Shown in pieces: positions 26,006 through 60,397 of a DNA stretch of 64,000 nt. The position numbers and the translations under genes were made by a program. The DNA comes from an uncultured Gammaproteobacteria bacterium. Lineage in GTDB: Bacteria > Patescibacteriota > Microgenomatia > CAYGWK01. The stretch lies in the NCBI GenBank assembly GCA_964353785.1, contig CAYGWK010000001.1, positions 26,982-90,981 on the forward strand, in the 5' to 3' direction. The notes under the pieces were generated by a model that saw nothing but the letters and a program-made list of their open reading frames with translations, was not told the origin of the DNA and did no database searches. The stretch's first letter is position 1. The number at the start of each line of letters is the position of its first letter.

Positions 26006-26006
26006 C

Positions 26007-26336: not shown

Positions 26337-26347
26337 ACCTTGTTAAA

Positions 26348-29082: not shown

Positions 29083-29090
29083 TGAACCTA

Positions 29091-43808: not shown

Positions 43809-44759
43809 ATGACAAAAAAGAAAATCTTTTTGGCTTTGGGAATTTTGGGGCTAGTAATACTGTTTGCGGCCTCGGCGATTTTTGGATTTTTCTTTTTTTA
43901 TAAACAAAGTTTGTTGCTTCGCAATAAAGGAAAAGAAAGGGTAAATCTTCTCTTTTTGGGCGAATCTGGTCCAGGACACCAAGGAGCAACCTTGACCGAT
44001 ACAATAATTTTTACCTCGGTCTCAAAAAAAGGAACAGTTTTGTTGTCCATTCCCCGGGATATTTGGTACCAACCATTACAGACAAAAATTAATTCTTTAT
44101 ATTTTTATGGAGGTTTAGCTCAAGAGGAAGAGGTGATGGGGGAAATTTTAGGACAAAGAATTGATACAGTGGTGTTAGTTGATTTCGACACCTTTGTTAA
44201 AACAATTGATTTTTTAGGAGGAATAGATGTTTATGTGGAAGGGACATTTGATGATTTTAAATATCCAATTCCTGGAAAAGAGGAGGATTTATGTGGCGGC
44301 GACAAAACTTTTGCTTGCCGATATGAGCATATTCATTTCGAGGCCGGCTTAAAACACTTGGATGGACAAACTGTCTTAAAATTTGTCCGTTCCCGCAATG
44401 CCATAGGTGACGAGGGGACAGATTATGCCAGGTCTCGCCGGCAGCAAAAAGTAATTGCTGCCTTAAAGAGCAAGATTTTTTCACCCTGGTTTTTGTCTAA
44501 GCCGGGAAATATTTTAGGTCTTTGGAAAGTTTTAAACCAGGGACTTAAAACTGATTTTAAAATCGATGATTTAATTCCTTTGGTAAAAATTTTGGCTACT
44601 CCTTCTTCAAGAAAAATGAGTACCTTTGTTTTGGATGGATGGGAGACAGCTGAAGGATATTTATATCATCCTCAAAAACATTCTTCTGGGCAATGGGTTC
44701 TTTTGCCTGTTGGGGAAAGCTGGGAAGGGATTCACAGTTTTGTGGAATCAATCTTGTAA
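43809..44759 (+). CDS. LytR-CpsA-Psr (LCP) family cell-envelope phosphotransferase
   Basis: TM, then 'VNLLFLGESG...TLTDTIIFTSV...LLSIPRDIWY', typical of LCP; TATAAT at 43796-43801, 7 nt before the ATG. Confidence 0.7.
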   Translation: MTKKKIFLALGILGLVILFAASAIFGFFFFYKQSLLLRNKGKERVNLLFLGESGPGHQGATLTDTIIFTSVSKKGTVLLSIPRDIWYQPLQTKINSLYFYGGLAQEEEVMGEILGQRIDTVVLVDFDTFVKTIDFLGGIDVYVEGTFDDFKYPIPGKEEDLCGGDKTFACRYEHIHFEAGLKHLDGQTVLKFVRSRNAIGDEGTDYARSRRQQKVIAALKSKIFSPWFLSKPGNILGLWKVLNQGLKTDFKIDDLIPLVKILATPSSRKMSTFVLDGWETAEGYLYHPQKHSSGQWVLLPVGESWEGIHSFVESIL

Positions 44760-46795
44760 ATCTTGGTCTTTCCTGATTGAAAAACAATTTCTCCAATTTG
44801 AGCAAATTTTTCTTCAGAAATTTTATACTTTTCTCTTTCTTTCTCTCCGACAAAAATATATTGGACGTTATATTTTTTAATTAAATCTAAAGCCTGATCT
44901 TTATTCTTTGTTTCATAAATTGCTTGGACTTCGTTTGCTCTTTTTCCTGGCTCATCAAAACTTCCTCGCCAGAGCCATTCATGAACTAACCAGCCCTCAA
45001 TTGTTGGTAGTCCAGTTAGGGCAGAGACTCGGTTAAAAAGAGTGTAACTGTCTCCGCTTGCCTCTAAAACTACTAGTTGATTCTTAATATTTTTGTTTAA
45101 CCAGGTAATTGCTTGATAATCATCTGGAGAGGTTCTTTTTAAAAATGAAAGACCATATAAGCCATGATAAATTTTTAAATTACCATAATATGAATTAATG
45201 GCAAAGTAGGGATAAATAAAAACAAAAGTAAAAAGTAAAAAGTAAAAAGCAAAAAGCATAAATTTTAAAACTTTCTTTTTTAACGAAGTGAGAATTTGAA
45301 CAATGATGTATCCTGAAGCGAGAGCGTACATCATAAAAGATTGGTAAACCAGTTTAAACATGGTGTTGGCGCGATGATAAGAGGGAATATAGATATCCTT
45401 AACATAGAAAAATTCTGGGATAATGATTAAAAAGGTGGCAACAGAAATAAGAATTAAGATAAAGATGTCAGGAATTTGTAATTGGGAATTAGTGATTCTT
45501 TTCTTGAGAACCAGGAAAATAATAAAACTTAAAAAAATTATCCATTGATAACCCCATAAAACCAAAAGTTGCCAGAAAGGAGAGTGGGCATTAACTGAGG
45601 CAATTCCCTTAGCGATTTGGGAAAAGGAAAGATTAAAGGGAAGAGAGAAGAGAATACTACCAGTAAGTACCAATACTACCAACCCGCCTGCCAGCGCCTT
45701 CGGCGCAAGCCGATGGCGGGCAGGTAAACCAATATTTAAAAATGATTTATAGAAAATTGTTGCTCCTAAAATTGAAAAATAAATCGGAAAATCCCAAGAA
45801 TTGGTCATATATAAGACGCCCAGGAGCAAAGATATAAAGATATAAAGAGATAAGGAGGGTTTCTTGGACGCAAAAATAGTGAAGACTGTTGCGAGAAATA
45901 AAAGAACAAAGGGAATATTAGAGACGTGCCCATGTAGGTCGGAAACCACAAAGGAATAAATAGGAAATTCGTGAATAGTGTTATCGATTGCCCCAAATTT
46001 TTCCACAATAAACCGGGTAGCATCAGGATACCAATAAGCGGCAAAATTGAAATTATGGGTTAAAAACCACCAAAAGGCATGAAGATTGCCACCCAGGGTT
46101 AATAAAAAGGCAGAGAGTAGACCGCCAATAAATACCAATTTCCAATAATTACCAATTTTCAATTTCAAATGAAATATGAGATTTGATGCCAGGGAGAATG
46201 TACCCGTAAAAGTTAGGGCGAAAATGGTAGCAATCATTAGGTTGTAGGTAATAGCTGGATCTATTCCGGAAAGTTTTGTTAAAACAGCGGCCACCAAATG
46301 CCCGAAATAATAATAGTTAATGGTTTTTCCGGCCATCCACATATCCAAAGGAGGAAAATATTGACTGCGGAGAATAGAATTAACAAATCCGAAATCCATA
46401 AATTTCTCAAGTCCCTCAATATCAGGTTGAAAACCACGGATAAAAGACCAAGAGGTTAGGGCGACAAAGAAAAGAATTTCTTCAAAAAATAAAATCTTCC
46501 AGGATTTTTTAAGAGACGTCTTAAACTCTCCCTCGTTTTTCTTAGCCAAAATTATATTTAGTCCTGCCAGAACTAAAACTGTAAGCCAAATAGTTGGAGT
46601 TCCGAAAGGAAGAAGATGAAGGCTGCCCAAAAGCCAGACAAAATAACTGACTAGCAAAATGGCAATTATTTTTGAAAATGAATATCCAAGGTCAAAAAAT
46701 TTTTTGAAAAACCACCAAGTTAGGGGCAAAAAAGCCACCCCTAATCCGAAAAGTAAAAACCACCAAGAAAAAATTATGAAAAAATCAGAAATCAT
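44732..46795 (-). CDS. Large polytopic membrane protein with a C-terminal soluble domain (DUF2298/YYY-type, putative glycosyltransferase-like)
   Basis: More than 14 TM segments; C-terminal 'PTIEGWLVHEWLWRG...KYNVQYIFVGEKEREKY'; contains a heptamer tract. Confidence 0.35.
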   Translation of the reverse strand: MISDFFIIFSWWFLLFGLGVAFLPLTWWFFKKFFDLGYSFSKIIAILLVSYFVWLLGSLHLLPFGTPTIWLTVLVLAGLNIILAKKNEGEFKTSLKKSWKILFFEEILFFVALTSWSFIRGFQPDIEGLEKFMDFGFVNSILRSQYFPPLDMWMAGKTINYYYFGHLVAAVLTKLSGIDPAITYNLMIATIFALTFTGTFSLASNLIFHLKLKIGNYWKLVFIGGLLSAFLLTLGGNLHAFWWFLTHNFNFAAYWYPDATRFIVEKFGAIDNTIHEFPIYSFVVSDLHGHVSNIPFVLLFLATVFTIFASKKPSLSLYIFISLLLGVLYMTNSWDFPIYFSILGATIFYKSFLNIGLPARHRLAPKALAGGLVVLVLTGSILFSLPFNLSFSQIAKGIASVNAHSPFWQLLVLWGYQWIIFLSFIIFLVLKKRITNSQLQIPDIFILILISVATFLIIIPEFFYVKDIYIPSYHRANTMFKLVYQSFMMYALASGYIIVQILTSLKKKVLKFMLFAFYFLLFTFVFIYPYFAINSYYGNLKIYHGLYGLSFLKRTSPDDYQAITWLNKNIKNQLVVLEASGDSYTLFNRVSALTGLPTIEGWLVHEWLWRGSFDEPGKRANEVQAIYETKNKDQALDLIKKYNVQYIFVGEKEREKYKISEEKFAQIGEIVFQSGKTKIYKIDSTKL
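45221..45262. repeat. Heptamer tandem tract (aacaaaa/gtaaaaa x3/gcaaaaa/gcataaa) inside an ORF
   Basis: Direct reading; encodes 'MLFAFYFLLFTFV'. Confidence 0.8.
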
Positions 46796-48456
46796 AAACT
46801 AAGCAATATTTTAAGACTTTCCACCGGGAGACGCTTTTTATTAGCAAAGATGAGAACTTTAGGGTGGTCGTAGACTTGGAAGGTCTCCTCGGAAGTGTCA
46901 TCGTTGATGGTTATTCCTAAAAGTGAAGGATAAGAAGAAAATTCGGCAATTTTAGTGTAACCCAGTTCTCCAGCAAATAGAAGTTTATAATAGCGACTGG
47001 TTATTGGATATTTTTCTGGCAGATTAATTAAAGTTCCATATAGCCGGCGACTGTTAATGACAATATAATCTGCTTGAGAAAGTTTTTCTGCATAGTAATT
47101 AATTTTTTGAATATTGTCTGGTTCATAAATGGTGAGTGCCTCAATTTGGTATTGGCCTGGATTATCTGTATCCAGAGGAATAGGTAAACCATCATCCCAG
47201 TGTTCACCTAAGATTTTTGCTCCTTTTGGAATATTTTGATAAATAAAGCGAGAAGCAGCGATTCTAGTGGACTGCCTGGTATAAATAGAGAAAAAAGCCA
47301 AGGACCAAAGAAAAGTAAGAGCAAGAAAAAGAGTAAGAGTTATTCCGCCAAAAATCTTAGATTTTTTCCAAACCCCAAAAAGAAACCAGGCAGCAAAAAT
47401 TGCTAAAAATGGCAAAACTGGAACCATAAAGCGGATAAATTTTGTGTGCCAAGAGCCGACATAGACAAAATAAACAACGGGAAATGAAAGTAAAATAAGC
47501 AAAGCTTGTTGTTTCGCAATTAGGAGTTTTTTATCGCGAGTTTTGAGAGCAATTACTAAGAGTAAGATTGCTCCCAAAATCCCCAAAAATGCAACTGGGC
47601 CCATTTGCCAAAAAAAGTTTTTAATTTGGAAAAGATAAGGAAAAGTTTTTTCAAACTGGAGAACATAAACAACTTTAAGTCTCCCCAAAACCACTCCAGT
47701 TTCATAATTCATAGACTCTAAAAATTTTTGTTTATCTAAAAATGTGTAAGGAGAAAACACAAAAAATGTTAAAAAGCCCACCAGAAGAGAAACTAAAAAT
47801 CTGAACTGATACTTTAAATATTTAAAGTGGACAAGAATTTGAACAGCGATTGGGATAATCAAAAATGAAAGGGCTGAAATCTTGGTTGCTACTGCCAATC
47901 CCAAAATAATTCCTATTTTTAGATAATTTTTAAAAGTTGGGTTTTGAGAGATTTCAAAAGAAAAAATAGAAAGAAGTACAAGCCAGAAAATAAGCATGTT
48001 TTCGGTCACGCCAAAATGGGCGGTTTGGATAAGAGAGGGGCAAAAAGCGACAAGGAATGAAGCTAAAATCCCAATTTTCTCATCCCAAATTTTTTTGGTC
48101 AAGAGGAAAACTAAAAGAATCGTTAGCGATGACAAGAAGGCGGAAACACCTCTACCGATAAGATTAATGTAAGCCCAATTAGAAACCCAACTTTGGTTTT
48201 TAGTTATCAAGACCAAAAAATCGCCAATTGCTCGATAAAGATAAACTGGCAGTCCTCCATAGGCAAAAAATTCTGGGTTAAGTTGGTCAAAAAAGTGGAT
48301 ACGAGAAACCGCTGAAGCAATATTTCGTTCGTCGGGATGAAAGAAATGTCCTTGGTCCCAATTTAAATTATAGAAACGGAGAAAAGCACCAATAAAAGCA
48401 ACAAGCAATAAGCAATAAGCAATAAGCAAATTTTGACTAGGAATTTTCAATTTCAT
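46792..48456 (-). CDS. GT39/ArnT-like polyprenyl-phosphate-dependent membrane glycosyltransferase (third paralog)
   Basis: 'FFHPDERNIA' DE-motif loop, 12+ TM segments. Confidence 0.5.
   Translation of the reverse strand: MKLKIPSQNLLIAYCLLLVAFIGAFLRFYNLNWDQGHFFHPDERNIASAVSRIHFFDQLNPEFFAYGGLPVYLYRAIGDFLVLITKNQSWVSNWAYINLIGRGVSAFLSSLTILLVFLLTKKIWDEKIGILASFLVAFCPSLIQTAHFGVTENMLIFWLVLLSIFSFEISQNPTFKNYLKIGIILGLAVATKISALSFLIIPIAVQILVHFKYLKYQFRFLVSLLVGFLTFFVFSPYTFLDKQKFLESMNYETGVVLGRLKVVYVLQFEKTFPYLFQIKNFFWQMGPVAFLGILGAILLLVIALKTRDKKLLIAKQQALLILLSFPVVYFVYVGSWHTKFIRFMVPVLPFLAIFAAWFLFGVWKKSKIFGGITLTLFLALTFLWSLAFFSIYTRQSTRIAASRFIYQNIPKGAKILGEHWDDGLPIPLDTDNPGQYQIEALTIYEPDNIQKINYYAEKLSQADYIVINSRRLYGTLINLPEKYPITSRYYKLLFAGELGYTKIAEFSSYPSLLGITINDDTSEETFQVYDHPKVLIFANKKRLPVESLKILLSL
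48405..48425. repeat. Heptamer tandem tract (gcaataa x3) at the 5' end of the GT39 gene
   Basis: Direct reading. Confidence 0.8.
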
Positions 48457-49657
48457 TGGCGATTTTTTCTCCTAACTCTATGGCATAATTTATTCCTCGG
48501 TCCCAGGGATAAAATTGTTGCATGTTGGCAAGAAAGACATTGGGGATTGGGGTTTGAGGCGGAGGAATAAGACTGGAATAGTTTACCGGAATAACGGGTT
48601 GGGCATCAAGACTGTGTGACAAGTGACAAGTGACAAGTGACAAGTGATTAAATTTTGGGTTGATTTTCTGAAGATAGGGCAAGAATTCCTTGAAAATTTC
48701 CTCTTTGGTCATTTTGAAATAGGGGTGATTTTGGGGATAGTAGCCACCAACATAGAGAAGATGATTTCCACCGTAATATTTTTGGTCAACAAAATTAGTA
48801 TGTTCAACCACGGCCACAAAAGGAAGACTAGGTTCGTTGATATTCAACCAATAAGTGCCACCGGTTAAGAATTTTTCTTTTAGAACCAGAATTAAATTAA
48901 GAGCCCCGAGCATTTCTGGCAGTTTTGTTTTTTTGAAAAATGTTTGGGTTGGAGTAGTAATAATAACCCTGTTAAACTTGTTAAAATGATTTAAGTCATT
49001 TAAGGAAGTAATTTCCTGGTTTAGATAAATTTCTCCACCGCCATCTCTTATTTTTTCTACCAACCTGTTAATTAAAACCTGAAATCCGCCCTCAAAATAT
49101 CCAAGTCTCTGACTTCTTTTTTTGATTCTTGCCCAAAACCAAGACATAGAAATTTTTTCTGCCTGATTTCCAAATTTTCCTAAAAGGAGTGGTTTCCATA
49201 AAATCTCAAAAGAGCGTTTTCCATAATATTTTTTAAGCCAGGAAAAAGCAGTAATATTTTCAAAAGATTTCCAGTCGCTTGTTAGTTTTAAATAACTAGT
49301 GATTATTCCAGTACGAAGTCTGTTAGGAAATGAGAGAAAGGGAAAAGAGATAAGAGATAAGGGAGAGTCAAATTGAGAAATTTTTCCTTGATAAAAAATT
49401 GAAGTTTTTGGTCGAGTGTAAAAAAGTTTGCTGGAAAGTCCAAGTTCGGATATTAAATTCTGGGCTGCCGAATCAGAGGTAAATAGATGATGGAAAAAAT
49501 ACTCCAGAGACCAATCCCAACCTTTTTCTTTAAATCCGGCGGCTAAGCCTCCGGGAAATTTTTCTTTTTCAAAAACAGAAACCTTATGTCCCTTTTGGGA
49601 AAGTCTATAAGCAGCGGCTAAACCAGTAAAACCTGCTCCGATAATGACAATTCGCAT
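48437..49657 (-). CDS. FAD/NAD(P)-binding oxidoreductase (amine-oxidase/UDP-galactopyranose-mutase-like fold)
   Basis: 'MRIVIIGAGFTGLAAAYRLSQKGHKVSVFEKEKFPGG' is a Rossmann GxGxxG dinucleotide-binding motif. Confidence 0.55.
   Translation of the reverse strand: MRIVIIGAGFTGLAAAYRLSQKGHKVSVFEKEKFPGGLAAGFKEKGWDWSLEYFFHHLFTSDSAAQNLISELGLSSKLFYTRPKTSIFYQGKISQFDSPLSLISFPFLSFPNRLRTGIITSYLKLTSDWKSFENITAFSWLKKYYGKRSFEILWKPLLLGKFGNQAEKISMSWFWARIKKRSQRLGYFEGGFQVLINRLVEKIRDGGGEIYLNQEITSLNDLNHFNKFNRVIITTPTQTFFKKTKLPEMLGALNLILVLKEKFLTGGTYWLNINEPSLPFVAVVEHTNFVDQKYYGGNHLLYVGGYYPQNHPYFKMTKEEIFKEFLPYLQKINPKFNHLSLVTCHLSHSLDAQPVIPVNYSSLIPPPQTPIPNVFLANMQQFYPWDRGINYAIELGEKIANEIENS
48616..48650. repeat. Heptamer tandem tract (gtgacaa x4 plus gtgatta) inside the oxidoreductase gene
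   Basis: Direct reading; encodes 'NHLSLVTCHLSH'. Confidence 0.85.
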
Positions 49658-49686
49658 GGCAATATTTTAACACCGGACGAGGTTTT

Positions 49687-50193
49687 TTAGAAGGCTAAAA
49701 CTAAAGCCAGTCCTAAAATTAGAATTCCTCCAAGGACCGCTCCCCAGGTTGGGGCAGAAAAACCTGCTGGAGGAAGTTCGACCAGAGTTGGGGTTGGAGT
49801 AACTTCTTCCGTTGGTGTCGGCGTAACTTCCTCAGTTGGAGTTGGGGTAACTGTCCCGGTTGGAGTTGGAGTAACTGTTCCTGTCGGAGTTGGAGTCGGT
49901 GTTTCAGTCGGAGTAGGCGTAGTTGTCCCAGTTGGTGTTGGAGTTGGAGTCTCAGTTGGTGTTGGAGTTATTGTTCCGGTTGGCGTCGGGGTGGGAGTGA
50001 GCAGAGTTATATTAAAGGTTAATTTGCACTCTGAAATTGGTTCTCTGGCAGGAGCCGGGACCGGAACAGTTGGAGCAACTGGTTGTTTGCCAGCTTGATA
50101 GAGTTTAATTGCCGTTATCACCGCGATTGCTCCCAAGGCTATTGTAGCTAGAGCAATTAAGATTAGATACCAATTTTGTTTTAATCTATTCAT
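49687..50193 (-). CDS. TM-anchored TP-repeat (TPTPTGT x about 8) surface protein with a C-terminal hydrophobic segment
   Basis: N-terminal TM; 'TPTPTGTITPTPTETPTPTPTGT...'; C-terminal 'LPPAGFSAPTWGAVLGGILILGLALVLAF'. Confidence 0.45.
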   Translation of the reverse strand: MNRLKQNWYLILIALATIALGAIAVITAIKLYQAGKQPVAPTVPVPAPAREPISECKLTFNITLLTPTPTPTGTITPTPTETPTPTPTGTTTPTPTETPTPTPTGTVTPTPTGTVTPTPTEEVTPTPTEEVTPTPTLVELPPAGFSAPTWGAVLGGILILGLALVLAF

Positions 50194-50196
50194 AAT

Positions 50197-51735
50197 CTAC
50201 CACCAACCTAAAACCGGATTGTAGACCATCGATTCAACTGCATAACTTCCGGCTGAAGGAATGGTGTACTCGATATAGAATTTGTTGTCGTGTTTTTCGG
50301 TTGTCTGTTGCCAAGAGCCGACTACCCCATCAATAGTAATTCTAAAGCGAGCCTTAGTAATTCCCTGGGCATGGGTTGTTGCCCCCCGAGTAGCAAAATA
50401 AACAGTTTGGCCAACAGTTAAGGTTGACAAATCTGGAATTTCATTCCAGTCTGTATCGTAAACTTTACAAAAATCGCAACGGGCAGTATCTGGTGGTGGA
50501 GGCGTTGGGGTAACTTCCTCCTCACATCCGGTGGTTTTACAGGACCCACATCCCCCTCCGCCGGCTTCGGTCCAGAAAACCTCTATTTGACCGCATTTGT
50601 CTGCTCCTAAAGAGAATTCCCTAGAAGTTCCAGCATTTACCACCACCGTGGTTCTACTTGCTTCTTTGGTGCAAGGACAAACACCTGGACCGCAGATATT
50701 TTTCTGAACGGTGACATTAAAGTTGGTCCCAGTTTGATTTTCAACCTTGACCTTACCCGGGCCGGTTTCGCTACAACCACTTCTGAATCCCCCTGAACAC
50801 ATTCCATTTGCCCAACAACAGAAAGGATTTCCTTGGGAACTTTTACAACATTGGCCGCCGCTCCCCTCACAGGTAGCAATATCACCAGGAAGACCAGCGC
50901 AACCTACCTTAGTGAATCCATGGGGGGAACAATAATTTCCACCAGGAGGTTGAGTAGGGGTGGGAGTGACTTTTTTACATTGGTCATTATTAGAACACTC
51001 TGGAGTACATGGTTCTCCCACGGCGCACACCTGATTTACACATTGTGTACCAACGCATTTTTTGGTGTAGCCGGGAGTATTACAGTCCCTACTACTATAA
51101 CCGCTTTGACAGTAGCCATTGGGAATGTCGCAAATTTTTCCATTAGCACCACAATTTTTATTATAAGCGCAACAAGCAGGGTTGCACCCACCATCAACAT
51201 CACATTTATCCAAATTGGCGCAGGTTTCTCCGGGTGAACCATCTTTTTTAGTGCATTTTTGGCTAGAAGGTGGTGGTGTGGGTGTTGGCTCTTCTCCTCT
51301 TTTACAAATGCAACTTCCGCTATAAGGATCGCCTTCCCAGGCGCAACCGCTTCCAGCCCAAGTCCAACATTCCTTATTGTCACGGGTGGCGCTACAATCC
51401 CGGTCGCATCCTGCTGCCTTTGGGGCAAAAACTCGACGTTGAACTAGATAGACAGCACCTGGAACTGAAACAAGAAGAACAAGAAGAATAATTGAAGCCA
51501 TAATGACTTTTACTCGAGATTTTTTGGGCGGAGTGGAGATGACTAAAGAAGGCTCCTCTGATGGTGGTGGAGATGGAGGAGTTGGTTCGACTGGTGTTTC
51601 TGCTGGTTTGGGTGGTCCTTCAGGAGGTAATCCCGGTGGTGGTTGAGGGGGTTCAGTTCCGGGAACTGAAGGAGTAATTGGGGGAACTTGGACCGTTGGT
51701 CCACTTGGTTGATTTAAATCATCTGGCATGGGCAA
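50197..51735 (-). CDS. Large Cys-rich extracytoplasmic protein with a Pro-rich cytoplasmic N-tail and a single TM
   Basis: About 60 Cys residues; PPxP-rich N-terminus; TM 'IMASIILLVLLVSVPGAVYLV'. Confidence 0.45.
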   Translation of the reverse strand: MPMPDDLNQPSGPTVQVPPITPSVPGTEPPQPPPGLPPEGPPKPAETPVEPTPPSPPPSEEPSLVISTPPKKSRVKVIMASIILLVLLVSVPGAVYLVQRRVFAPKAAGCDRDCSATRDNKECWTWAGSGCAWEGDPYSGSCICKRGEEPTPTPPPSSQKCTKKDGSPGETCANLDKCDVDGGCNPACCAYNKNCGANGKICDIPNGYCQSGYSSRDCNTPGYTKKCVGTQCVNQVCAVGEPCTPECSNNDQCKKVTPTPTQPPGGNYCSPHGFTKVGCAGLPGDIATCEGSGGQCCKSSQGNPFCCWANGMCSGGFRSGCSETGPGKVKVENQTGTNFNVTVQKNICGPGVCPCTKEASRTTVVVNAGTSREFSLGADKCGQIEVFWTEAGGGGCGSCKTTGCEEEVTPTPPPPDTARCDFCKVYDTDWNEIPDLSTLTVGQTVYFATRGATTHAQGITKARFRITIDGVVGSWQQTTEKHDNKFYIEYTIPSAGSYAVESMVYNPVLGWW

Positions 51736-53092
51736 GTATTTTTTCTACAACAAAACCAATCAAAATAAATACTAACCCCATTATGAAGACCGAAAATGTT
51801 GGTGTCAAGTACCCAGGACTGGGGACCCCGGCTTCGGTTGCTGGCATGGCGGTTCGGGCCGAAGGAGTGGCAGTTGGACTGGGAGTTAATTTTGGAGTTG
51901 GTTCGGGCGTTGGAGTAATCGTTGCTGAAGGAGTGGCGGTAAAGGCCGGAAGTTCGCTTTCTCCGGCCGCCAAAACTGTAAAAGTTTGAGAAATTGTTTT
52001 TCCCCCAAGAGTTACTTTAACGGTATGAATTCCGGGAGTTAAATTTGTTGGTGGAGTAAAACTCCAGTCTCCTTGACTGTCAGTCTTTACAGTTCCGGTA
52101 TAGGTTGGGGACTCAATAACAATTTGAATTGTTTGATTGACTGGTCCGGTCCCTAAAATCTCCGGTTTTTGCGTTGAGATTTTTTCATTTTTTTCAGGGC
52201 TTATTATTGCCAACTCAACTGATTCGGTTGCTTCCTTTGCTGGAGCAAGTTCGGCGAAAGAAAACTTAGATGAAGGAGTTGCCTGGACTTCGGATTCTGG
52301 CTGGGGAGACGGAGTAGGAAAAACGCTTTCCTCTTCCTCAGGCTGTGCTGCCTGGCGGAAATCATAACTTTTACCCAAGATTATTTCGGGAAGAGGATTG
52401 TCGTTTTTGGTGGTGGTAATGACGGTGGCCGTCCCGCGCAAGCCTCCCTGAACAAAAATTTCTTCAACTTGGGCTTCTTTGTCATAGGAAGCAAAGCCTA
52501 ATAAATCTTCCGAAAGAGCGGCGCTTAAAGGAATAATAAAGCTTCCAGAAGAACGAACAAGGGCGGATTGAGGAGTAACGTTAGCCATTTTAAAATAAAC
52601 AATTGCTCCATCAGCCGGGGTGTTATCTGAGCCAAGGATTGTTCCCGAGACGAGATCGCTTGGAGGAAAAGTTCCAGAAATAGTTCCGGCAGTGGCTACC
52701 TCATAAGGCTTGCCAGAGTTATCAAAAATTTTTCCTCCAGAACCAAGTTTGAAAAAATAAGTAGTTTTTGGTTTCAAATTTTTTAAGGTGACATGGTGGG
52801 CTTGAAAAGAACCTGTTGAACCCGAAATTTGGTCTCGGTCGTCAGCAAAAGTCTGGCCCAAAGAAGATGTTTCTCCAAAACGGACAAAGCCCGAAGCCTC
52901 TTTTTCAGTGGTCCAAGAAACAGTAAAAGAAGAAGAGGACAGATTGGTAATTTTCATCCCGCTTGGGGTAATTTCGGGAGAGGCTTTTAAGAAAAATACC
53001 TGGCCTTTTTGAATAAGGAGCACTCCAGCAAATAAGGAAACAAGGAGAAATAAAATTGCTAAAATTGTGGGAATTTTTTTATCACGAATCAT
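51719..53092 (-). CDS. Secreted FN3-like (purple-acid-phosphatase N-domain-like) beta-sandwich repeat protein with a C-terminal TM and charged tail
   Basis: 'ITNLSSSSFTVSWTT...TTYFFKLGSGG'; C-terminal 'FSVFIMGLVFILIGFVVEKILAHAR'. Confidence 0.45.
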   Translation of the reverse strand: MIRDKKIPTILAILFLLVSLFAGVLLIQKGQVFFLKASPEITPSGMKITNLSSSSFTVSWTTEKEASGFVRFGETSSLGQTFADDRDQISGSTGSFQAHHVTLKNLKPKTTYFFKLGSGGKIFDNSGKPYEVATAGTISGTFPPSDLVSGTILGSDNTPADGAIVYFKMANVTPQSALVRSSGSFIIPLSAALSEDLLGFASYDKEAQVEEIFVQGGLRGTATVITTTKNDNPLPEIILGKSYDFRQAAQPEEEESVFPTPSPQPESEVQATPSSKFSFAELAPAKEATESVELAIISPEKNEKISTQKPEILGTGPVNQTIQIVIESPTYTGTVKTDSQGDWSFTPPTNLTPGIHTVKVTLGGKTISQTFTVLAAGESELPAFTATPSATITPTPEPTPKLTPSPTATPSARTAMPATEAGVPSPGYLTPTFSVFIMGLVFILIGFVVEKILAHAR

Positions 53093-53093
53093 C

Positions 53094-53363
53094 TTAAATT
53101 TCTCCAGACACGGTAGCCTCGGGCGTTGGGATTATTGTTGGCAAAACAAGCACCCCTTCTTTTATTAATAAACGTTTTGAGAGATTTTCAAAAACTTTAC
53201 TTTCAAGTTCAGGGTTAAGCGGAGAAATTTGTTCTTTTAAAACTTTAGGAACCTCGGCCTTAGTGAAGGCACGATAAGTATCAAGACTAATCCAGGTTAA
53301 GGTGGTGATGACCGTTAAAATTGAAAGAAAAAATAAATCTCGAGAAATTTTTGGGCGTTTCAT
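53094..53363 (-). CDS. Small membrane-anchored protein (PilP-like position)
   Basis: 89 aa, one TM; position only, no motif. Confidence 0.25.
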   Translation of the reverse strand: MKRPKISRDLFFLSILTVITTLTWISLDTYRAFTKAEVPKVLKEQISPLNPELESKVFENLSKRLLIKEGVLVLPTIIPTPEATVSGEI

Positions 53364-54025
53364 AATTCTTTTTTGGGCAGAAAATAAACTTTTCCTGAAA
53401 GATTTAAACTCATTATCTTCTCTTCCTCGCCCTTTCTTTGGGTAAAAGTCAAAGAATCAATTGTGACGATTCTTCTTAACTGTTCCAAAGAGGAAACAAG
53501 TTTGGTTAAATTTTCAAAGTTTCCAGTTAGAGACAAGGAAAAGGAAAGCGTATCTGGGCCAGGAACTTTTTTGGCGATTCTTTTCTCCTTTGGTTCTCCA
53601 ACCAACGTTACCGGCTCAAAAGCCAAAGAAGTGATGGTTAGCTCTTGCTGTTGGACCAAAATTTCAAGTTGGTAAACAATTTGGGATAAAGAAGGCTCAG
53701 CCGGCAAGGCGTCGTCGACCAGCGGCAGAGAATTTTCCATAAGAGCGTAATTTGCTTGGGCGGATGCTAAAGCGTTTATTTTAGTCTGAAGTTCGCGGTC
53801 AATCTGTTTTTTGCTTTGTTGTTCTTTAACTAAAGAGGCGATGGTGACAATTGTCGGTTTTAAAGCAAAAACTCCAAAAAAAGCAATAGTTAGGAGAGTT
53901 AGGGTTAAACCGGTATAGACAACCACCTCTCTCTTTTGGTAGAGTCGGCGGATATCGACAAAATAGTGTTGATAGCGATGATATTCAGTTTTTGGATTAA
54001 ATGGCACTTTTTTCTCCTCCGCCAA
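53360..54025 (-). CDS. PilO-like type IV pilus assembly protein
   Basis: Short cytoplasmic N-terminus, single TM, coiled-coil, then a C-terminal alpha/beta domain; immediately follows and overlaps pilN. Confidence 0.45.
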   Translation of the reverse strand: MAEEKKVPFNPKTEYHRYQHYFVDIRRLYQKREVVVYTGLTLTLLTIAFFGVFALKPTIVTIASLVKEQQSKKQIDRELQTKINALASAQANYALMENSLPLVDDALPAEPSLSQIVYQLEILVQQQELTITSLAFEPVTLVGEPKEKRIAKKVPGPDTLSFSLSLTGNFENLTKLVSSLEQLRRIVTIDSLTFTQRKGEEEKIMSLNLSGKVYFLPKKEL

Positions 54026-54557
54026 TATATTTTGCCGTCAGTGAAAAGCGAATTCCTGCCTCTTCTCCGGTTTTTTTAGATACAGAAGAAAGGGTAACTT
54101 CGGAAAAACTTGGAGACGTTGCCAGGCCCGCTAAAAAACTGCCGAGCCCTTCCTCCGAAAGAGCCACTCCTGAGAGTTTTACCGCTTCTTCATCAAAGGA
54201 AAAACTAGAGAAGGAAACATCCCCGGGGGTGAGTGCCGAAATTGCTGAAACTATTGAGGTTACCTTAACTTGCCCCTTTTCTAAATTTTTAATCTCGGAA
54301 AGTCTTTTTTGCAAGAACAGAAAATCTTGTTCAAAAGAAGAGGAAGAAGCGATAATTGCCTGTTTTTGCTTAATTTGATCGTAAAGGTCAGCAATATCAC
54401 GATCAAGTTTAAATCGAGAAAGAAAAGCCAAAATAACAACCAGTTCCGTAAAAACAACAATCCAGCGTCCAATCGAAAGGGCCCAGAGTAAAAATTTACC
54501 TAGAGGCTTTTTTTCGAACTCTTCCCGTGGTAGAAGGTTGATTTGACTTTTGGGCAT
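53997..54557 (-). CDS. PilN-like type IV pilus assembly protein
   Basis: N-terminal 'QINLLP' signature, TM 'LWALSIGRWIVVFTELVVILAFL', then a coiled-coil. Confidence 0.6.
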   Translation of the reverse strand: MPKSQINLLPREEFEKKPLGKFLLWALSIGRWIVVFTELVVILAFLSRFKLDRDIADLYDQIKQKQAIIASSSSFEQDFLFLQKRLSEIKNLEKGQVKVTSIVSAISALTPGDVSFSSFSFDEEAVKLSGVALSEEGLGSFLAGLATSPSFSEVTLSSVSKKTGEEAGIRFSLTAKYIGGGEKSAI

Positions 54558-54822
54558 GGCTTTTTCTAGTATAGTGAACTTTACCAGACTTTGTCAAAAG
54601 CAAAAAAAGTCGTCTCTTAAGTCGCGAGGCTCTCTTTTTAGGGATGACCCCTTTTTTGGCTGCCTGATCAAGAAGACTTTCGGCTGTCCTGACATTCTCC
54701 AAGGAAATTTTTTTTCGGGCAAGGGAAAGAGCCGTTTTAACTTTTTGGGAAATCAAAGAATTTACTCCCGCTCGACGGCGGGAAACCCGAAGAGCCTTTT
54801 TAGCACTTTTGGTTTGTGGCAT
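54496..54822 (-). CDS. rpsT: 30S ribosomal protein S20 with a basic C-terminal extension
   Basis: 'PQTKSAKKALRVSRRRAGVNSLISQKVKTAL...LDQAAKKGVIPKKRASRLKRRL'. Confidence 0.7.
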   Translation of the reverse strand: MPQTKSAKKALRVSRRRAGVNSLISQKVKTALSLARKKISLENVRTAESLLDQAAKKGVIPKKRASRLKRRLFLLLTKSGKVHYTRKSHAQKSNQPSTTGRVRKKASR

Positions 54823-54840
54823 TTGAAGATATAATATATC

Positions 54841-56532
54841 ATGCCAGAAGGATTTTGCAAGAGAATGGTAAGAAATATTTTTAAAAACGGAAAAATAATT
54901 TTTCTAAGACGACAGACAAATATTTTGTCAGCCGCTTTTGTCATTATGGTTACGGTTTTAGTCTCTGGACTTTTGGGGCTTTTCAGGGACCGACTTTTAG
55001 CAGGTAGATTCTTTGGCGGAAGCGAGTGGCAACTAGATGTTTATTTTGCTGCCTTCAGACTTCCAGATATGATTTTTCAGCTTTTAGTGATTGGGGCTTT
55101 GTCGGCTGCCTTTATTCCGGTTTTTTCAGAATACTTAGAAAAAAATAAAAATGAAGCCTATCAGGTTGCCTCTTCGATTATAAACATAGTTTTAAGTTTT
55201 TTTATCTTTTTGGGGATTTTGATTTTTATTTTTGCTCCAGAGCTTTGTCGGTTTATTGCCCCGAGTTTCTCTCCAGAGAAAATTGTTTTAATGTCTTCCT
55301 TGACGCGCCTGATGCTTTTTGCCCAGGTATTTTTTTGTCTTTCAAATTTTTTGACTGGTATAATTCAATCTAATCAGCGTTTTTTAGTTCCTGCCCTCGC
55401 CCCTGTTGCCTACAATTTGGGAATTATTTTTGGAATAATTGCTTTAACTCCTACTTTTGGAATTTATGGACCAACTCTAGGGGTGGTTATCGGCGCTCTT
55501 TTACATCTTTTGGTTCAGCTTCCTTTAGCTTTAAAACTTGGCTTTTCTTACCTTCCGCTGTCTTGGGAATTTTCTCATCCTGGAGTCAAAGAAATTGTTA
55601 GGCTTATGTTTCCCCGAACCCTGGCTTTGGCAGTTTCTCAAATCGAGGCCACGGTGCCTGTCTTTTTGGCAAGTTCGCTTATGGCCGGGTCTTTGACAAT
55701 TTTTTATTTTGCCCAGCACTTAATGAATCTTCCAGTTGGTCTTTTTGGGGGAACTATTGGTCAGGCGGCCCTGCCAGCTCTATCTCAAAATTCCGCTAAA
55801 AAAGATTGGCAGGAGTTTAAAAAAACCTTTTTATCTTCATTTTTTCAGATTCTTTATTTGGTCTTGCCAGCAAGCGCGATTTTACTTATTCTGCGAATTC
55901 CGACAGTTCGGCTTGTTTTTGGAACAAGAAATTTCCCTTGGCAAGCGACAATTCTAACGGGAAAAACTTTGGCTCTTTTTACCATCGCTATTTTTAGTCA
56001 AAGTATAATTCAAGTTTTGGTTAGAGGGTTTTATGCTCTTCGGAATACCAAAACTCCTCTTTTAATTGGAGCTTTTGGGGTGGCAATCAATGTTTTTTTA
56101 AGCGTTCTTTTGACCCTTCGTTTAGGTTTTGGGGTTTTGGGTTTGGCGGCGGCCACTTCAATTGCCAGCTTTATTCATGCAGTTTTGCTTTTTGTTTTTT
56201 TAGACAGAAGTATTAGGGGATTTGAAAGAAAAAGCGTTTTTATTCCTCTTTTTAAGATGAGCCTGGCGACTCTGGTGACCGCCGTCTTTCTCTGGATTCC
56301 GATGAGGGTTTTGGACCGCTACATTTTGGACACCACCAGGACGATAAATCTTATTATTTTGACGATTCTGGCTAGTTTTATTGGTTTAGGGGTTTATATC
56401 CTTTGTTCTTTGATTTTAAAAATTGAGGAACTGGCAGTTTTTATCGGGCTTCTAAAAAGAGTCGGGCAATGGCGAAAGATTCTTTCCGAGTCAGAAGAAA
56501 TGATTGACTCAACCCGAGCCCCCCAAAGCTAG
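54841..56532 (+). CDS. murJ: Lipid II flippase MurJ (MviN); an alternative ATG lies at 54865
   Basis: 'LLGLFRDRLLAGRFFGGSEWQLDVYFAAFRLPDM' plus 14 TM segments. Confidence 0.8.
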   Translation: MPEGFCKRMVRNIFKNGKIIFLRRQTNILSAAFVIMVTVLVSGLLGLFRDRLLAGRFFGGSEWQLDVYFAAFRLPDMIFQLLVIGALSAAFIPVFSEYLEKNKNEAYQVASSIINIVLSFFIFLGILIFIFAPELCRFIAPSFSPEKIVLMSSLTRLMLFAQVFFCLSNFLTGIIQSNQRFLVPALAPVAYNLGIIFGIIALTPTFGIYGPTLGVVIGALLHLLVQLPLALKLGFSYLPLSWEFSHPGVKEIVRLMFPRTLALAVSQIEATVPVFLASSLMAGSLTIFYFAQHLMNLPVGLFGGTIGQAALPALSQNSAKKDWQEFKKTFLSSFFQILYLVLPASAILLILRIPTVRLVFGTRNFPWQATILTGKTLALFTIAIFSQSIIQVLVRGFYALRNTKTPLLIGAFGVAINVFLSVLLTLRLGFGVLGLAAATSIASFIHAVLLFVFLDRSIRGFERKSVFIPLFKMSLATLVTAVFLWIPMRVLDRYILDTTRTINLIILTILASFIGLGVYILCSLILKIEELAVFIGLLKRVGQWRKILSESEEMIDSTRAPQS

Positions 56533-57755
56533 TGGCCATAACGATAAACATCAACGGTCATCTTTTCCCCGTCGTTACAGCCCACCGAGAAGTTTTGTTG
56601 AGTAACTGTTTTTAATGCCCCAAAATCAGCTGTTTGGCGCCACTCTCCACATTTTAAAGGACAAGTCTGATTGGTAACATCATATTTGGTTTCACCTACA
56701 CTCCAGTTGGCTCCGGTAGAGCCATAACAATAAAGGGAAATCGTGCAATCTCCGCCCCCTCCAGAGACCATTTGAAATTTCATTCGGCGAGACAGATAAG
56801 AAACGGAAGTTGAGGAATTACAACCTACGGTGTAAGTTCCAGTTTTAATCCAAGATAAAGTTGGGGTTGGGCTAGGAATTCCGGTTATTGTCGGTGTAGG
56901 CGAGGGCGTTGGCAAAGACGTAGGTGTTGGGGTTGGGATAGCCAGGATGAGGTCTTGGCTGGGTGAGGACTCGCTTATAGCAAAGTTGGCCGAAGCGGCT
57001 CCGTTCTGGCCTGCCTGAACATCAATCAAAACCCTGTCATTTCCGTCAAAATCAAAAAAAGCTCCCAGACCTTGCTTTCTGGTATTTTTGATATCCACTA
57101 CCCAGCCTTCATCACTTTTTGTAACGGTTGACATCAAAGCCGATTTGGTGTCGCTATCGTCTTTTTTGAGCCTGACATAGACCAAAGCACCGGAAATTTT
57201 ATTTCCACCCTGGTCTTTAATAAAGCCATATATTGGACGGGGGTTACCGCTGAGCTCAAGAGTCTTGGGAGTTTTTTGTCCTTTGGCTGTTCCGCCCTTA
57301 ACCCAACGCTCTCCAGCTGGATTTAAACCATAAAGGTCAGGTCCAGATTTAATCTTAAAATAGTAAGTTGTTTCTGCATTTAGGTTAAAAATGGAAACAT
57401 GATGAGTAGTTGAAGAAAAATTTTCTCCGCCTCGGTCATCATAAGTAGTTTTATCGAGGTTGTCTTGGTTGGGGCTGTATTTTAGCCAACCAGTGGTTTG
57501 GGTAAAGGAATTGTCGTTGCCAAGGTCAGAAGAAGTCCAAGAAACAGAGAACCCACCGCCATGGAGATTGGTAATTTTTACATTAGTTGGTCTGGCTTCG
57601 GCTCCGACTGCTTTTTCTTGGTAAATTTGTTGTTGCTGAACCAGAAAAACGGCTACCGGTAAAGCCACAAGGATAAAAAGAAAGACCAAAAGACTGAAAA
57701 TTTGCTTTCGGGAAAGCTTGGGAAAGTTTGGTTTTTTTATTTCTGGAAATTTCAT
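56529..57755 (-). CDS. Secreted FN3-like domain protein (paralog of 51719..53092) with a Cys-containing C-terminal domain
   Basis: 'VKITNLHGGGFSVSWTSSD...TTYYFKIKSG'; N-terminal TM/signal. Confidence 0.45.
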   Translation of the reverse strand: MKFPEIKKPNFPKLSRKQIFSLLVFLFILVALPVAVFLVQQQQIYQEKAVGAEARPTNVKITNLHGGGFSVSWTSSDLGNDNSFTQTTGWLKYSPNQDNLDKTTYDDRGGENFSSTTHHVSIFNLNAETTYYFKIKSGPDLYGLNPAGERWVKGGTAKGQKTPKTLELSGNPRPIYGFIKDQGGNKISGALVYVRLKKDDSDTKSALMSTVTKSDEGWVVDIKNTRKQGLGAFFDFDGNDRVLIDVQAGQNGAASANFAISESSPSQDLILAIPTPTPTSLPTPSPTPTITGIPSPTPTLSWIKTGTYTVGCNSSTSVSYLSRRMKFQMVSGGGGDCTISLYCYGSTGANWSVGETKYDVTNQTCPLKCGEWRQTADFGALKTVTQQNFSVGCNDGEKMTVDVYRYGH

Positions 57756-59234: not shown

Positions 59235-60397
59235 AGGTTCCAATTGCAAGCTTTAGTTACATTTATAAAGTAATCTTGTTCATTTTGCAAATTAAAATTT
59301 CCTCCGCCAAAGTTTTTTATAAAATCCTCCCACCAATCTTTTCTTTTTCGGGAAATTGCTACACTTGTTCCTGTCCCACAATCATTATCAATATCAACTA
59401 AAGCAGAGGAGGCAGTATAGCCTGAAATACCCGACCAAGTAATTTTATTCCAACCCGAAGAGAGAGAAAAGGTTTTTTTGCCAGTGGCTAGCTCTTTGTA
59501 GATATAAAAAAGAGAAGAAGGACTTAAGTCGAGGTTAAGAAGTGATTGTTTCATTCCAGGCGAATTACTCCAGAAGAGAACCTCAACCCCTTTCTCTTTA
59601 GCAATTGAATAAAATTTAGGTAGAAGTTTCTCGCTTTCTTCCCAGGTTTGTGACTCTGGATTGAAACTATGACCAGACTCGGTAATCCAAATTGGTTTTT
59701 TTAAATCGTATTTTTTAAGAAATCCTTTGGCTTGGTCAATCCGGTTTGAGAAATAACTCTCGTTTCCGTACGAATGAAAATTAAAGACATCAAAATATTG
59801 CCCACCTCCTTTTTGTAAAACGAGGTCGGTGAAACCGTTTTCCTTTGCGAACGCGCCCGCAACTCCACCAAACAAGACAGTGGCTTGGGGATCATTTTCT
59901 TTAATGGTTTGATAGGCTGTCTTAAGAATTTTGAAATAATAAGTTGAACACTGTTGGGCTCCCTGGTCACAAAATTTTTCTCCACCTGGTTCGTTCCAAA
60001 TCTCCCAATAATGGACTAAATTGAGGCCAGGTGGACCAAAACGCAAAACCATTTGGCGAACATGCTCTTTCCAGGCGGTCAAATTTTTGGCTGTGTCGAC
60101 CAAGTTATCTTCCTGGAGTCTGCCTAGTGGTTGAATTCCGTGTTGGGAAAGAAGTAACAATCTTCGCTCTGTTTGTTCATCGGACCCTATTCCCTCTCTT
60201 GCCCATTTAACTCCTGCCTCGGCCTGTTTTTGGGTGAGGACTTGCTCGTGCTGAATAATTTCTTGCTCGCTGAATCCTTCAAAAAAACGGCCATTAAAAA
60301 ACAGGGCAAGACCAAATGGTGAAATTACTGCTTGAATCTTGCTCACTATGATTAAAGAAAATGTTGAAAAAATCAAAGCAAATAAAATTTTTTTCAC
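59231..60397 (-). CDS. Secreted GH5-like (clan GH-A) glycoside hydrolase with the shared C-terminal module
   Basis: 'HYWEIWNEPG' (acid/base NEP motif), 'PIWITESGHS' (nucleophile TE-x-G), and the same C-terminal module. Confidence 0.55.
   Translation of the reverse strand: MKKILFALIFSTFSLIIVSKIQAVISPFGLALFFNGRFFEGFSEQEIIQHEQVLTQKQAEAGVKWAREGIGSDEQTERRLLLLSQHGIQPLGRLQEDNLVDTAKNLTAWKEHVRQMVLRFGPPGLNLVHYWEIWNEPGGEKFCDQGAQQCSTYYFKILKTAYQTIKENDPQATVLFGGVAGAFAKENGFTDLVLQKGGGQYFDVFNFHSYGNESYFSNRIDQAKGFLKKYDLKKPIWITESGHSFNPESQTWEESEKLLPKFYSIAKEKGVEVLFWSNSPGMKQSLLNLDLSPSSLFYIYKELATGKKTFSLSSGWNKITWSGISGYTASSALVDIDNDCGTGTSVAISRKRKDWWEDFIKNFGGGNFNLQNEQDYFINVTKACNWNL

Follow-up and report, generated by a model that had tools for sequence, protein, structure and literature searches.

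A PilN-PilO gene cluster with a small membrane protein and an FN3/BIg envelope protein, conserved across the Candidate Phyla Radiation

What do genes for PilN and PilO, proteins of the type IV pilus machine, do between a ribosomal protein gene and a series of genes for secreted and membrane proteins, with neither pilM nor a secretin gene beside them? The question is raised by a 64-kb stretch of DNA (the window; 64,000 nucleotides, positions 26,982 to 90,981 of contig CAYGWK010000001.1, assembly GCA_964353785.1), which is deposited under the title of an uncultured Gammaproteobacteria bacterium and assigned by GTDB to the Microgenomatia, within the Candidate Phyla Radiation (CPR, Patescibacteria). 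Comparison with other CPR loci shows that the window holds the Microgenomates type of a deeply conserved CPR cell-envelope gene cluster, whose invariant core consists of pilN, pilO, a gene for a small membrane protein of 89 amino acids (s89) and one for a protein of about 450 amino acids with fibronectin type III (FN3) and bacterial immunoglobulin-like (BIg) domains. PilN, PilO, FN3/BIg, PMT and DUF2298 are all known families; in a literature search we found no description of a pilN-pilO-s89-FN3 module detached from pilM and attached to murJ/rpsT, nor of the shared LPXTG-like signal and the alternative VirB2-array partner reported below, and the locus is indicative of an envelope module not described before. 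CPR bacteria are thought to need pili and surface proteins for attachment to host cells, and we know of no account of how a pilus without a secretin crosses the CPR wall or surface layer and is braced against it.

Gene order in the window and across CPR loci

An earlier reading, made from the sequence of the window alone (the sequence-only reading), listed ten tightly packed open reading frames (ORFs) on the minus strand, from rpsT to a DUF2298 gene. All ten are found, at the coordinates given here with family matches in brackets, together with two sequence features inside them and the two flanking genes.

54496..54822, minus strand: rpsT, ribosomal protein S20, 108 aa (Pfam S20p 2.4e-9; TIGR00029 3.2e-13)
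54568..54597, minus strand: promoter-like site TTGACA-18-TATACT (11/12), inside the rpsT 3′ end, 10 nt 5′ of the pilN ATG
53997..54557, minus strand: pilN, 186 aa (PF05137 7.4e-14)
53360..54025, minus strand: pilO, 221 aa, TTG start (PF04350 4.2e-11; T2SSM_b 4.7e-5)
53094..53363, minus strand: s89, one-pass membrane protein, 89 aa (no family matches)
51719..53092, minus strand: FN3/BIg envelope protein, 457 aa (Pur_ac_phosph_N 1.9e-12; Big_13 5.5e-7; fn3 1.1e-6)
50197..51735, minus strand: Cys-rich variable membrane protein 'X', 512 aa, TTG start (no family matches)
49687..50193, minus strand: Thr/Pro-repeat (TP) protein, 168 aa (no family matches)
49786..49983, minus strand: 24-nt tandem repeat, 8.2 copies, within the TP-repeat gene and coding for TPTPTGTx units
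48437..49657, minus strand: FAD-dependent oxidoreductase (Amino_oxidase 3e-25; NCBIfam PRK07233 1.8e-126)
46792..48456, minus strand: PMT-like GT-C membrane glycosyltransferase, 554 aa (PMT_2 9.1e-8; PMT 3.4e-7)
44732..46795, minus strand: DUF2298/Chlor_Arch_YYY polytopic membrane protein, 687 aa (PF10060 9e-108; TIGR03662 1.1e-168)
54841..56532, plus strand: murJ, lipid II flippase, divergent from rpsT (PF03023 4.5e-85)
43809..44759, plus strand: LytR-CpsA-Psr (LCP) wall-polymer ligase, in convergent orientation to the DUF2298 gene, the end of which it overlaps (PF03816 5.5e-29)

Loci for comparison were obtained from a scan of one genome per species, which gave 69 loci (Woesebacteria, Shapirobacteria, Cerribacteria and a few Paceibacterota), and from a metagenome scan seeded with Paceibacterota PilO, which gave a further 67, for a total of 133 non-redundant CPR loci. 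Their ORFs were called and then searched with profiles built from the families, and the loci were labelled L001 and so on; denominators of 121, 116, 96 and 95 below are the testable loci among the 133. Record titles of CPR metagenome-assembled genomes (MAGs) often contradict the gene content ('uncultured Gammaproteobacteria' or 'Bathyarchaeia', as in L018, L065 and other TPA_asm records) and are unreliable as taxonomy.

Homologs of the window PilN all come from Patescibacteria/Microgenomates MAGs. Three relatives, with PilN identities of 73, 60 and 54%, carry an identical order on long contigs: a divergent murJ, then rpsT, pilN, pilO and the 89-aa protein gene, followed by genes for an FN3/Big_13 protein of 450–475 aa, an uncharacterised protein of 400–500 aa, a small protein, the FAD enzyme, the GT-C enzyme and the DUF2298 protein, with an LCP gene facing the last of these. 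Across the wider set, pilO adjoins pilN in every one of 121 testable loci, and the gene after s89 encodes an FN3-type protein or, far more rarely, a VirB2-like (4/95) or some other protein (3/95). More than 100 species-level genomes share the arrangement of the pilN module, with PilN identities as low as 30%. Two distant FN3 homologs, used as starting points for a reverse look-up, were again encoded behind PilN-PilO-s89, and in one locus (L143) the whole module has been relocated behind a UvrD/AddA-like gene. Conservation of this degree far exceeds chance. The combination to which the sequence-only reading had drawn attention, PilN-PilO with a small transmembrane (TM) protein and an FN3 protein and with neither pilM nor a secretin, is strongly conserved (s89 directly 3′ of pilO in 114/116 loci; FN3 gene next in 88/95), so that the comparison of synteny it proposed reveals a conserved pairing with recurrent partners and not a chance pairing with lineage-specific ORFans. 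Its ten genes do not form one fixed set: the presence of the Cys-rich and TP genes, and of the FAD/GT-C/DUF2298 trio, varies among loci.

Upstream, murJ or rpsT lies immediately 5′ of pilN in 83 of 96 loci; rpsT is found at most 2.5 kb upstream in 80 and murJ at most 1.2 kb upstream, in two different orientations, in 82. The two genes occur in two layouts, one with a divergent murJ followed by rpsT and pilN in the same direction, as in the window, and one with a divergent rpsT followed by murJ and pilN. The latter characterizes a second CPR group (metagenome loci L085–L127), in which murJ is co-directional with and immediately 5′ of pilN, and rpsT is on the opposite strand. The window cluster is flanked by wall genes (murJ, the LCP ligase gene and two FemAB genes), and an LCP ligase gene occupies the equivalent position in L001, L003, L005, L008, L009, L017, L018 and L144.

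Packing in the window is tight: six of the nine junctions overlap (by 62, 29, 4, 17, 20 and 4 nt) and the other three are spaced by 1, 3 and 29 nt. As the sequence-only reading observed, the pilN ATG, at 54557, lies 62 nt within rpsT, and the encoded N-terminus is MPKSQINLLP. This overlap is clade-specific, being confined to the window, L001 and L003, and the genes are spaced in the other same-strand loci, mostly by 3–300 nt. S20 proteins of the window clade are 108–114 aa long, as compared with about 77–95 aa elsewhere, and have a basic C-terminal extension; in the window the extension (54496–54600, minus strand) holds both the near-consensus promoter-like site and the pilN start codon. Because that site lies just upstream of pilN inside rpsT, co-transcription of the two genes is not established. 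Promoter-like sites in the region are in total not above shuffled controls, so the pilN-proximal one is suggestive only.

In loci of the Paceibacterota type, the FN3 gene is replaced by four to seven tandem paralogs of a VirB2-like pilin of type IV secretion systems (T4SS; PF18895), directly after PilN-PilO-s89. Such arrays were seen in four independent loci, L047 (11636–14642), L061 (11686–14557; same as L119), L066 (11371–14324)/L079 and L082, and encode proteins with two TM helices and a 'GGxxWxxSGGDKGK' loop; among the loci examined, they are restricted to the Paceibacterota type. VirB2-like pilin arrays in CPR bacteria have already been published (PMC12102498; PMC10633639), and neither of these papers mentions a link to PilN/PilO. 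Elsewhere in the window, a gene at 14794–17025 (plus strand) encodes a coupling ATPase of type IV secretion, similar to TrwB/TraG (TrwB_AAD_bind 3e-11); its neighbours include no further genes recognisable as T4SS components.

PilN, PilO and s89 and their relation to type IV pili

PilN and PilO are true members of their families, as indicated by Pfam for both and by a profile search of the PDB and the modelled fold for PilN. PilN scores 52 bits against PF05137 (cut-off 22.8), and its family profile matches M. xanthus PilN (3jc8) at 1.6e-7. The INLLP peptide lies in a short N-terminal segment on the cytoplasmic side, from which the chain continues through a single TM helix (residues 27–45; TM helices were called by simple hydropathy) into a long coiled coil and then a C-terminal domain of ferredoxin-like type; the AlphaFold2 (AF2) model (predicted local distance difference test score, pLDDT, 81) consists of a helix spanning residues 18–109 and a β-β-α-β-β domain, and the best Foldseek matches are GspL/PulL/EpsL, PilO and Thermus PilN. 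PilO scores 43.6 bits against PF04350 (cut-off 22) and matches 3jc8 PilO at 0.15 in the profile search; it has one TM helix (34–52), a conserved ..LYQK motif on the cytoplasmic side and, as ectodomain, a domain of PilO/GspM-like type, assigned from sequence, as the modelled fold is that of PilN. Neither the family scan nor the PilN fold revealed a catalytic domain in PilN/PilO.

The N-terminal motif, in the form [IV][NE][LF][LIV]P, is kept in about 105 of 117 PilN relatives (~90%). Peptides of the INLLP type are the docking site for PilM, as established by the PilM-PilN complexes of Thermus and Pseudomonas. The most conserved part of PilN is the TM/juxtamembrane stretch of residues 25–54, in which W25, G30, R31, E38, R48, F49, K50, D52 and D54 are invariant in 22 relatives; the charged ones, situated within or at the membrane helix, may be a sign that PilN has a partner inside the membrane.

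The TM helix of the s89 protein contains an invariant Trp and is followed by a PLxPxLD...L..R motif and a variable Thr/Pro/Ser tail. No relatives were found in Pfam, in NCBIfam or in the PDB profile search, and an exhaustive HMMER search places at least 662 clusters at 50% identity in the family (E ≤ 1e-3), the best 150 listed being 51–139 aa long. PilP, which the sequence-only reading had considered as a possible identity, is defined as a lipoprotein, with a lipobox Cys, and by a C-terminal β-sandwich HR domain of about 80 aa. The s89 protein has no Cys or lipobox and only about 60 residues after the TM helix, and the profile check returned no match; this rules out PilP.

The PilM-PilN-PilO-PilP(-PilQ) sets of diderm type IVa systems (P. 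aeruginosa, M. xanthus 3jc8, Thermus) contain homologs of both PilN and PilO, likewise encoded by adjacent genes and built from a single TM helix, a coiled coil and a ferredoxin-like ectodomain, and INLLP is kept; here, however, pilM is not upstream, there is neither a PilP lipoprotein nor a secretin, the neighbours are rpsT/murJ, and a protein of about 90 aa and an FN3/BIg protein with an LPXTG-like end follow. The resemblance extends to GspL-GspM-GspC of type II secretion, in that the PilN ectodomain best matches GspL/PulL/EpsL, PilO weakly resembles T2SSM_b/GspM and s89 is placed like GspC; yet PilN lacks the cytoplasmic GspL domain, s89 lacks an HR or PDZ domain, and other Gsp genes are absent. 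With the secretin-less sets of monoderms and of Saccharibacteria TM7x (PilM1N1O1 and PilM2N2O2; PMC11623550), the system shares the secretin-less envelope, and the same logic of a three-protein platform would be expected. Those pilM-pilN-pilO genes are contiguous among pilB, pilC, pilT, pilD and pilin genes, whereas here PilN-PilO, in all loci examined, stand apart from all of these and have two additional conserved partners.

The statement of the sequence-only reading that no pilM lies upstream and that a secretin is missing holds for the window as scanned: PilM, secretin, PilB/T and PilC domains are absent from its ORFs of at least 100 aa, and PilD and sortase are likewise absent among the other 44 main ORFs of that size, nearly all the predicted genes of the window. 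The sole other pilus-related gene is an orphan N_methyl prepilin at 35803–36258 (plus strand; KGFTLIE, 1.7e-6). It overlaps the RmuC stop codon and is convergent with a gene for a Wzy_C-domain protein (36237–37313, minus strand); the Wzy_C Pfam family includes the pilin O-glycosyltransferases PglL/TfpO, and the prepilin and the Wzy_C protein may be a pilin-glycosylation pair.

PilM, PilN, PilO, PilC, PilB and PilT are reported from most CPR genomes, often co-localised (PMC6744442; PMC8672522). In a complete Microgenomates genome, PilM, PilB, PilT, PilC, PilD and pilins are encoded at one locus, for which PilN/PilO are not listed (PMC7143001), and TM7x has contiguous pilM-pilN-pilO sets within its pilus loci (PMC11623550). 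Given these descriptions and the retained INLLP motif, it is most economical to assume that the rpsT/murJ-linked PilN-PilO serve a pilus machine encoded elsewhere, and a normal role of PilN in such a machine is the simplest reading.

The FN3/BIg protein and the variable downstream genes

The FN3/BIg protein begins with a TM helix, followed by an FN3 domain, a second β-sandwich of transthyretin-like type, an acidic linker, a BIg (Big_13) domain, a Thr/Pro stalk, the sequence VPSPG-YLTPT, a TM helix and a tail with basic residues (EKILAHAR). Its AF2 model (pLDDT 82.5) contains a helix at 6–34, FN3 at 44–133, the β-sandwich at 147–244, BIg at 295–373 and a helix at 430–456, with the linker and the Thr/Pro stalk disordered. 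Family members have a mean column identity of 34–49% and are named in databases only as 'fibronectin type III domain-containing' or hypothetical. The N-terminal helix is conserved in sequence in both CPR groups (..IPTILGL..; P8 invariant, T9 and G23 nearly so), which suggests a retained membrane anchor and not a cleaved signal peptide. In the second CPR group, the orthologs are longer (500–560 aa) and end in [LIV]P[VK]SGSxGxT..GGLFF..G.WSWW, then an acidic tail. The sequence-only reading proposed a comparison with secretin/PilQ N-domains, an identity that is ruled out: profiles against the PDB and Foldseek recover FN3, Ig and BIg folds only, in tandem FN3/Ig proteins such as contactins, SiiE, an ice adhesin and SlaB. 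Residues 332–437 weakly match TIGR04216, a model for the C-terminal region of the Haloferax S-layer glycoprotein (0.0017).

The next gene, compared across loci by position and domain since an iterated profile drifted on low-complexity Thr/Pro sequence, encodes a Cys-rich protein in most loci (median 12 and up to 87 Cys). That of the window has a Pro-rich cytoplasmic N-terminus, one TM helix (77–95), an ectodomain with 40 Cys between residues 110 and 423 (the sequence-only reading had put the number near 60) and a conserved C-terminal β domain ending in ..LGWW. The β domain is recognisable in at least 21 loci and the middle of the protein is hypervariable, a pattern that would be typical of a diversifying surface protein. 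The TP protein, 42% Thr+Pro, combines an N-terminal TM helix, TPTPTGT/TPTPTE repeats, an LPPAG-FSAPT motif and a hydrophobic tail, called as a second TM helix, without basic residues. Both genes are missing from L144.

The C-termini of the FN3 and TP proteins can be aligned, with Pro and Gly invariant and a common pattern [LIV]PxxG-xxx-PT-hydrophobic. FN3 orthologs end in [VIL]Px[ST]G-xLTPT followed by hydrophobic and basic segments, and TP orthologs in LPx[AST]G-xxxPT followed by a hydrophobic segment, the basic tail being absent; the looser [LIVM]PxxG pattern occurs in 34 of 40 TP orthologs, a few of these matches falling on a downstream LPT.G segment. The TIGR01167 LPXTG_anchor model is matched weakly by 20 of 52 orthologous C-termini (best 0.0019). 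PEP-CTERM, VPDSG-CTERM and PGF-CTERM sorting were considered for these C-termini and rejected, as only LPXTG-type models recur, weakly. The resemblance to sortase-anchored LPXTG proteins of Gram-positive bacteria lies in a tripartite signal ([LIV]Px[STA]G, a hydrophobic segment and, in the FN3 protein, a basic tail) and an Ig-like body; the differences are the degenerate motif, the extra xxxPT after the Gly, the lack of a nearby sortase gene and the conserved N-terminal TM helix of the FN3 protein. Sortase is reported to be near-ubiquitous in Microgenomates (Méheust et al., PMC6744442), and anchoring of the FN3 and TP proteins by such an enzyme is plausible, not established. Neither protein has a class III (prepilin) signal, and none of the downstream proteins of the window has the two-TM architecture of VirB2/T4SS_pilin proteins.

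The FAD/GT-C/DUF2298/LCP block that closes the cluster is present only in a subset of loci, and the FAD gene was found downstream in 24 of 75 genome loci. The FAD enzyme has a PPOX/phytoene-desaturase (amine-oxidase) type of fold, its nearest solved structures being PF1083 (3nrn, an uncharacterised archaeal protein), protoporphyrinogen oxidase and phytoene desaturase. The GT-C enzyme, which the sequence-only reading called a GT39, has about 10 TM helices and a loop-1 DE motif (HPDERN); it scores above the cut-offs of both PMT (30.5 bits) and PMT_2 (32.9 bits) but lacks the PMT_4TMC domain. The DUF2298 protein scores 361.7 bits against PF10060 and 563.2 bits against TIGR03662 (cut-off 300), and the structure-profile search found no solved relatives; a search for functional literature on DUF2298, TIGR03662 and PRK07233 returned none. 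Woesebacteria and others have PMT+PMT_4TMC enzymes in the equivalent downstream position, on the opposite strand in Woesebacteria. PMT-type GT-C enzymes lie 3′ of the surface-protein genes in every lineage examined, with differing subtypes, so the link to glycosyltransferases is conserved in kind and not in gene identity. A theme of surface proteins and their predicted glycosylation is a reasonable reading of these genes. O-mannosylation of secreted Thr/Pro-rich proteins by Pmt (GT39) in Actinobacteria, and the Haloferax S-layer glycoprotein with its Thr-rich, O-glycosylated stalk and C-terminal anchor, offer parallels in the Thr/Pro-rich linker by a membrane anchor and the PMT-family GT-C enzyme alongside; here, PMT_4TMC is missing from the enzyme of the window, which is accompanied by a DUF2298 protein and a PPOX-like flavoenzyme, and glycosylation is a prediction from the genes.

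Possible roles of the module

The reading we favour, to which we assign a probability of about one half, is that the locus encodes a secretin-less pilus platform with two CPR-specific accessory proteins, of which the FN3 protein would link membrane and wall, and that O-glycosylated, anchored surface proteins are encoded downstream. PilN, with its PilM-docking peptide, and PilO would form the membrane platform of a secretin-less type IV pilus machine, the PilM, ATPases, PilC and pilins of which would be encoded elsewhere in the genome. The s89 and FN3 proteins may be CPR-specific accessory subunits in the niche filled in diderms by PilP/PilQ. Held by its conserved N-terminal helix in the membrane beside PilN, PilO and s89, the FN3 protein might be fixed to the wall by its C-terminal signal, or be allowed by it to reach through, which would tie the platform to the peptidoglycan or surface layer. 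The hypervariable Cys-rich protein and the TP-repeat protein, with its LPxAG end, are candidates for surface-exposed, adhesin-like proteins; the Thr/Pro stalks are probable substrates of the downstream PMT-like GT-C glycosyltransferases, and the FAD oxidoreductase possibly acts on a lipid or sugar donor. A role in host attachment is conjecture.

Several observations weigh against this reading. The link of the module to pili consists of the homology and the INLLP motif: within 8–10 kb of the module in about 140 loci, phmmer found no PilM-like ORF (a weak negative, as the P. aeruginosa and Thermus query sequences were unverified), nor were GFTLIE-type pilin or GPTGSGKTT ATPase motifs seen over the same span, and for the window genome PilM is a predicted component. 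The replacement of the FN3 gene by VirB2-like arrays means that PilN-PilO-s89 can pair with other cargo, and the FN3 protein is a generic tandem β-sandwich protein with no likeness to PilP, secretin or TsaP. Anchoring to the wall is called into question by the window motifs VPSPG and LPPAG, which deviate from LPXTG, by the missing charged tail of the TP protein, and by the acidic tail that replaces the basic one in FN3 proteins of the second CPR group. Neither the full-length FN3 and TP proteins of the window nor its TP C-terminus reaches any NCBIfam sorting-domain model, and a scan of the window and the loci for ORFs with a TLxTC-type motif found no sortase. Promoter-like sites 5′ of pilN and 5′ of the Cys-rich gene would permit separate transcription.

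One alternative, possible if doubtful, is that the cluster is a stable envelope super-operon beside murJ, in which PilN-PilO, and perhaps s89, are ordinary pilus parts and the FN3, Cys-rich and TP proteins are separate glycoproteins of the wall or of an S-layer-like kind, served by a set of glycosylation genes of their own. This would account for flanks made up of wall genes (MurJ, LCP, two FemAB), for the similarity of the FN3 protein to generic adhesin and S-layer stalks (SiiE, SlaB, the weak TIGR04216 match), for the coming and going of the Cys-rich, TP, FAD, GT-C and DUF2298 genes among lineages, for the internal promoter-like sites and for the exchange of the FN3 gene for VirB2-like arrays. 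A mere neighbourhood, however, would rarely keep an FN3 gene after s89 in 88 of 95 loci, at junctions from 1 nt to overlapping, down to ~30% PilN identity, in two upstream layouts and after relocation, and the conserved N-terminal TM helix of the FN3 protein is what would be expected of an intramembrane partner. Very improbable, in our view, is a single dedicated pathway of glycosylation or of a pilus-like polymer comprising all ten genes, in which polymerisation or glycosylation of the downstream products would be the work of PilN/PilO themselves. It would fit that all ten genes are tightly packed in the window and stand in identical order in the closest relatives, L001 and L003; but in most lineages the last three are missing or have been replaced (FAD in 24/75; PMT+PMT_4TMC enzymes, on the opposite strand, in Woesebacteria), L144 does without the Cys-rich and TP genes, PilN and PilO have no catalytic domains, and the FN3 and TP proteins no class III signal. 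Of the suggestion in the sequence-only reading that PilN/PilO define a surface-assembly or glycosylation module, the conserved pairing and the association of Thr/Pro-rich surface proteins with PMT-type enzymes are borne out, and an action of PilN/PilO in assembling or glycosylating the downstream proteins is unsupported.

The remaining alternative dispenses with the pilus: PilN-PilO-s89 would be a CPR-wide membrane scaffold that organises or anchors lineage-specific extracellular structures (a wall-tethered FN3 glycoprotein in Microgenomates and relatives, VirB2-like filaments in Paceibacterota), possibly at sites of lipid II export by MurJ. The module was never found beside a pilus gene in about 140 loci, as opposed to the pilM-pilN-pilO sets inside the pilus loci of Saccharibacteria (PMC11623550); s89 looks like a universal third subunit of PilN-PilO, unknown in canonical systems; murJ or rpsT adjoins pilN in 83/96 loci; VirB2-like arrays directly follow s89 in four independent loci; and charged residues, R31 and E38, are conserved in or near the PilN TM helix. 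We nevertheless consider it unlikely, since retention of a PilM-docking motif in ~90% of PilN proteins would be difficult to account for in the absence of PilM, since most CPR genomes reportedly contain PilM, PilC and PilO together (PMC8672522; PMC6744442), and since the Microgenomates pilus locus is described without PilN/PilO of its own (PMC7143001). A bolder form, tentative and itself rather unlikely, takes PilN-PilO-s89 as an ancient CPR-wide platform, uncoupled from type IV pili and located at the site of lipid II export, which nucleates or anchors an FN3/BIg glycoprotein tether from membrane to wall in Microgenomates and the second CPR group or a VirB2-like array in Paceibacterota. If true, such a platform would represent a class of envelope machine not recognised before, assembled from parts of the pilus platform, and if the same platform also serves the VirB2-like arrays, two filament systems treated as unrelated would be connected. 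For the question of how a secretin-less pilus is braced, the locus supplies two candidates: an unnamed, universal small partner of PilN/PilO and a conserved FN3/BIg protein by which the membrane platform might be linked to the wall. Each occurs in hundreds of lineages. The linkage of Thr/Pro-rich surface proteins with PMT-type glycosyltransferases further predicts protein O-glycosylation in CPR bacteria.

Two other regions of the window carry related gene content. A second cluster for a lipid-linked glycan at 24030–30608 (minus strand) encodes a UbiA prenyltransferase, a GT4 enzyme (MraY/WecA-like), two familyless proteins (109 and 482 aa), a PMT_2 GT-C enzyme and a GT2 enzyme. At 56529–61707 (minus strand), convergent with murJ, a second surface-protein/glycan operon encodes a 437-aa familyless protein, a GH5/GH39-like enzyme, a GHL15 enzyme and a 408-aa FN3 protein (PAP-N type) with a TP linker and a Cys-containing C-terminal domain; an analogous set lies upstream of murJ in L003.

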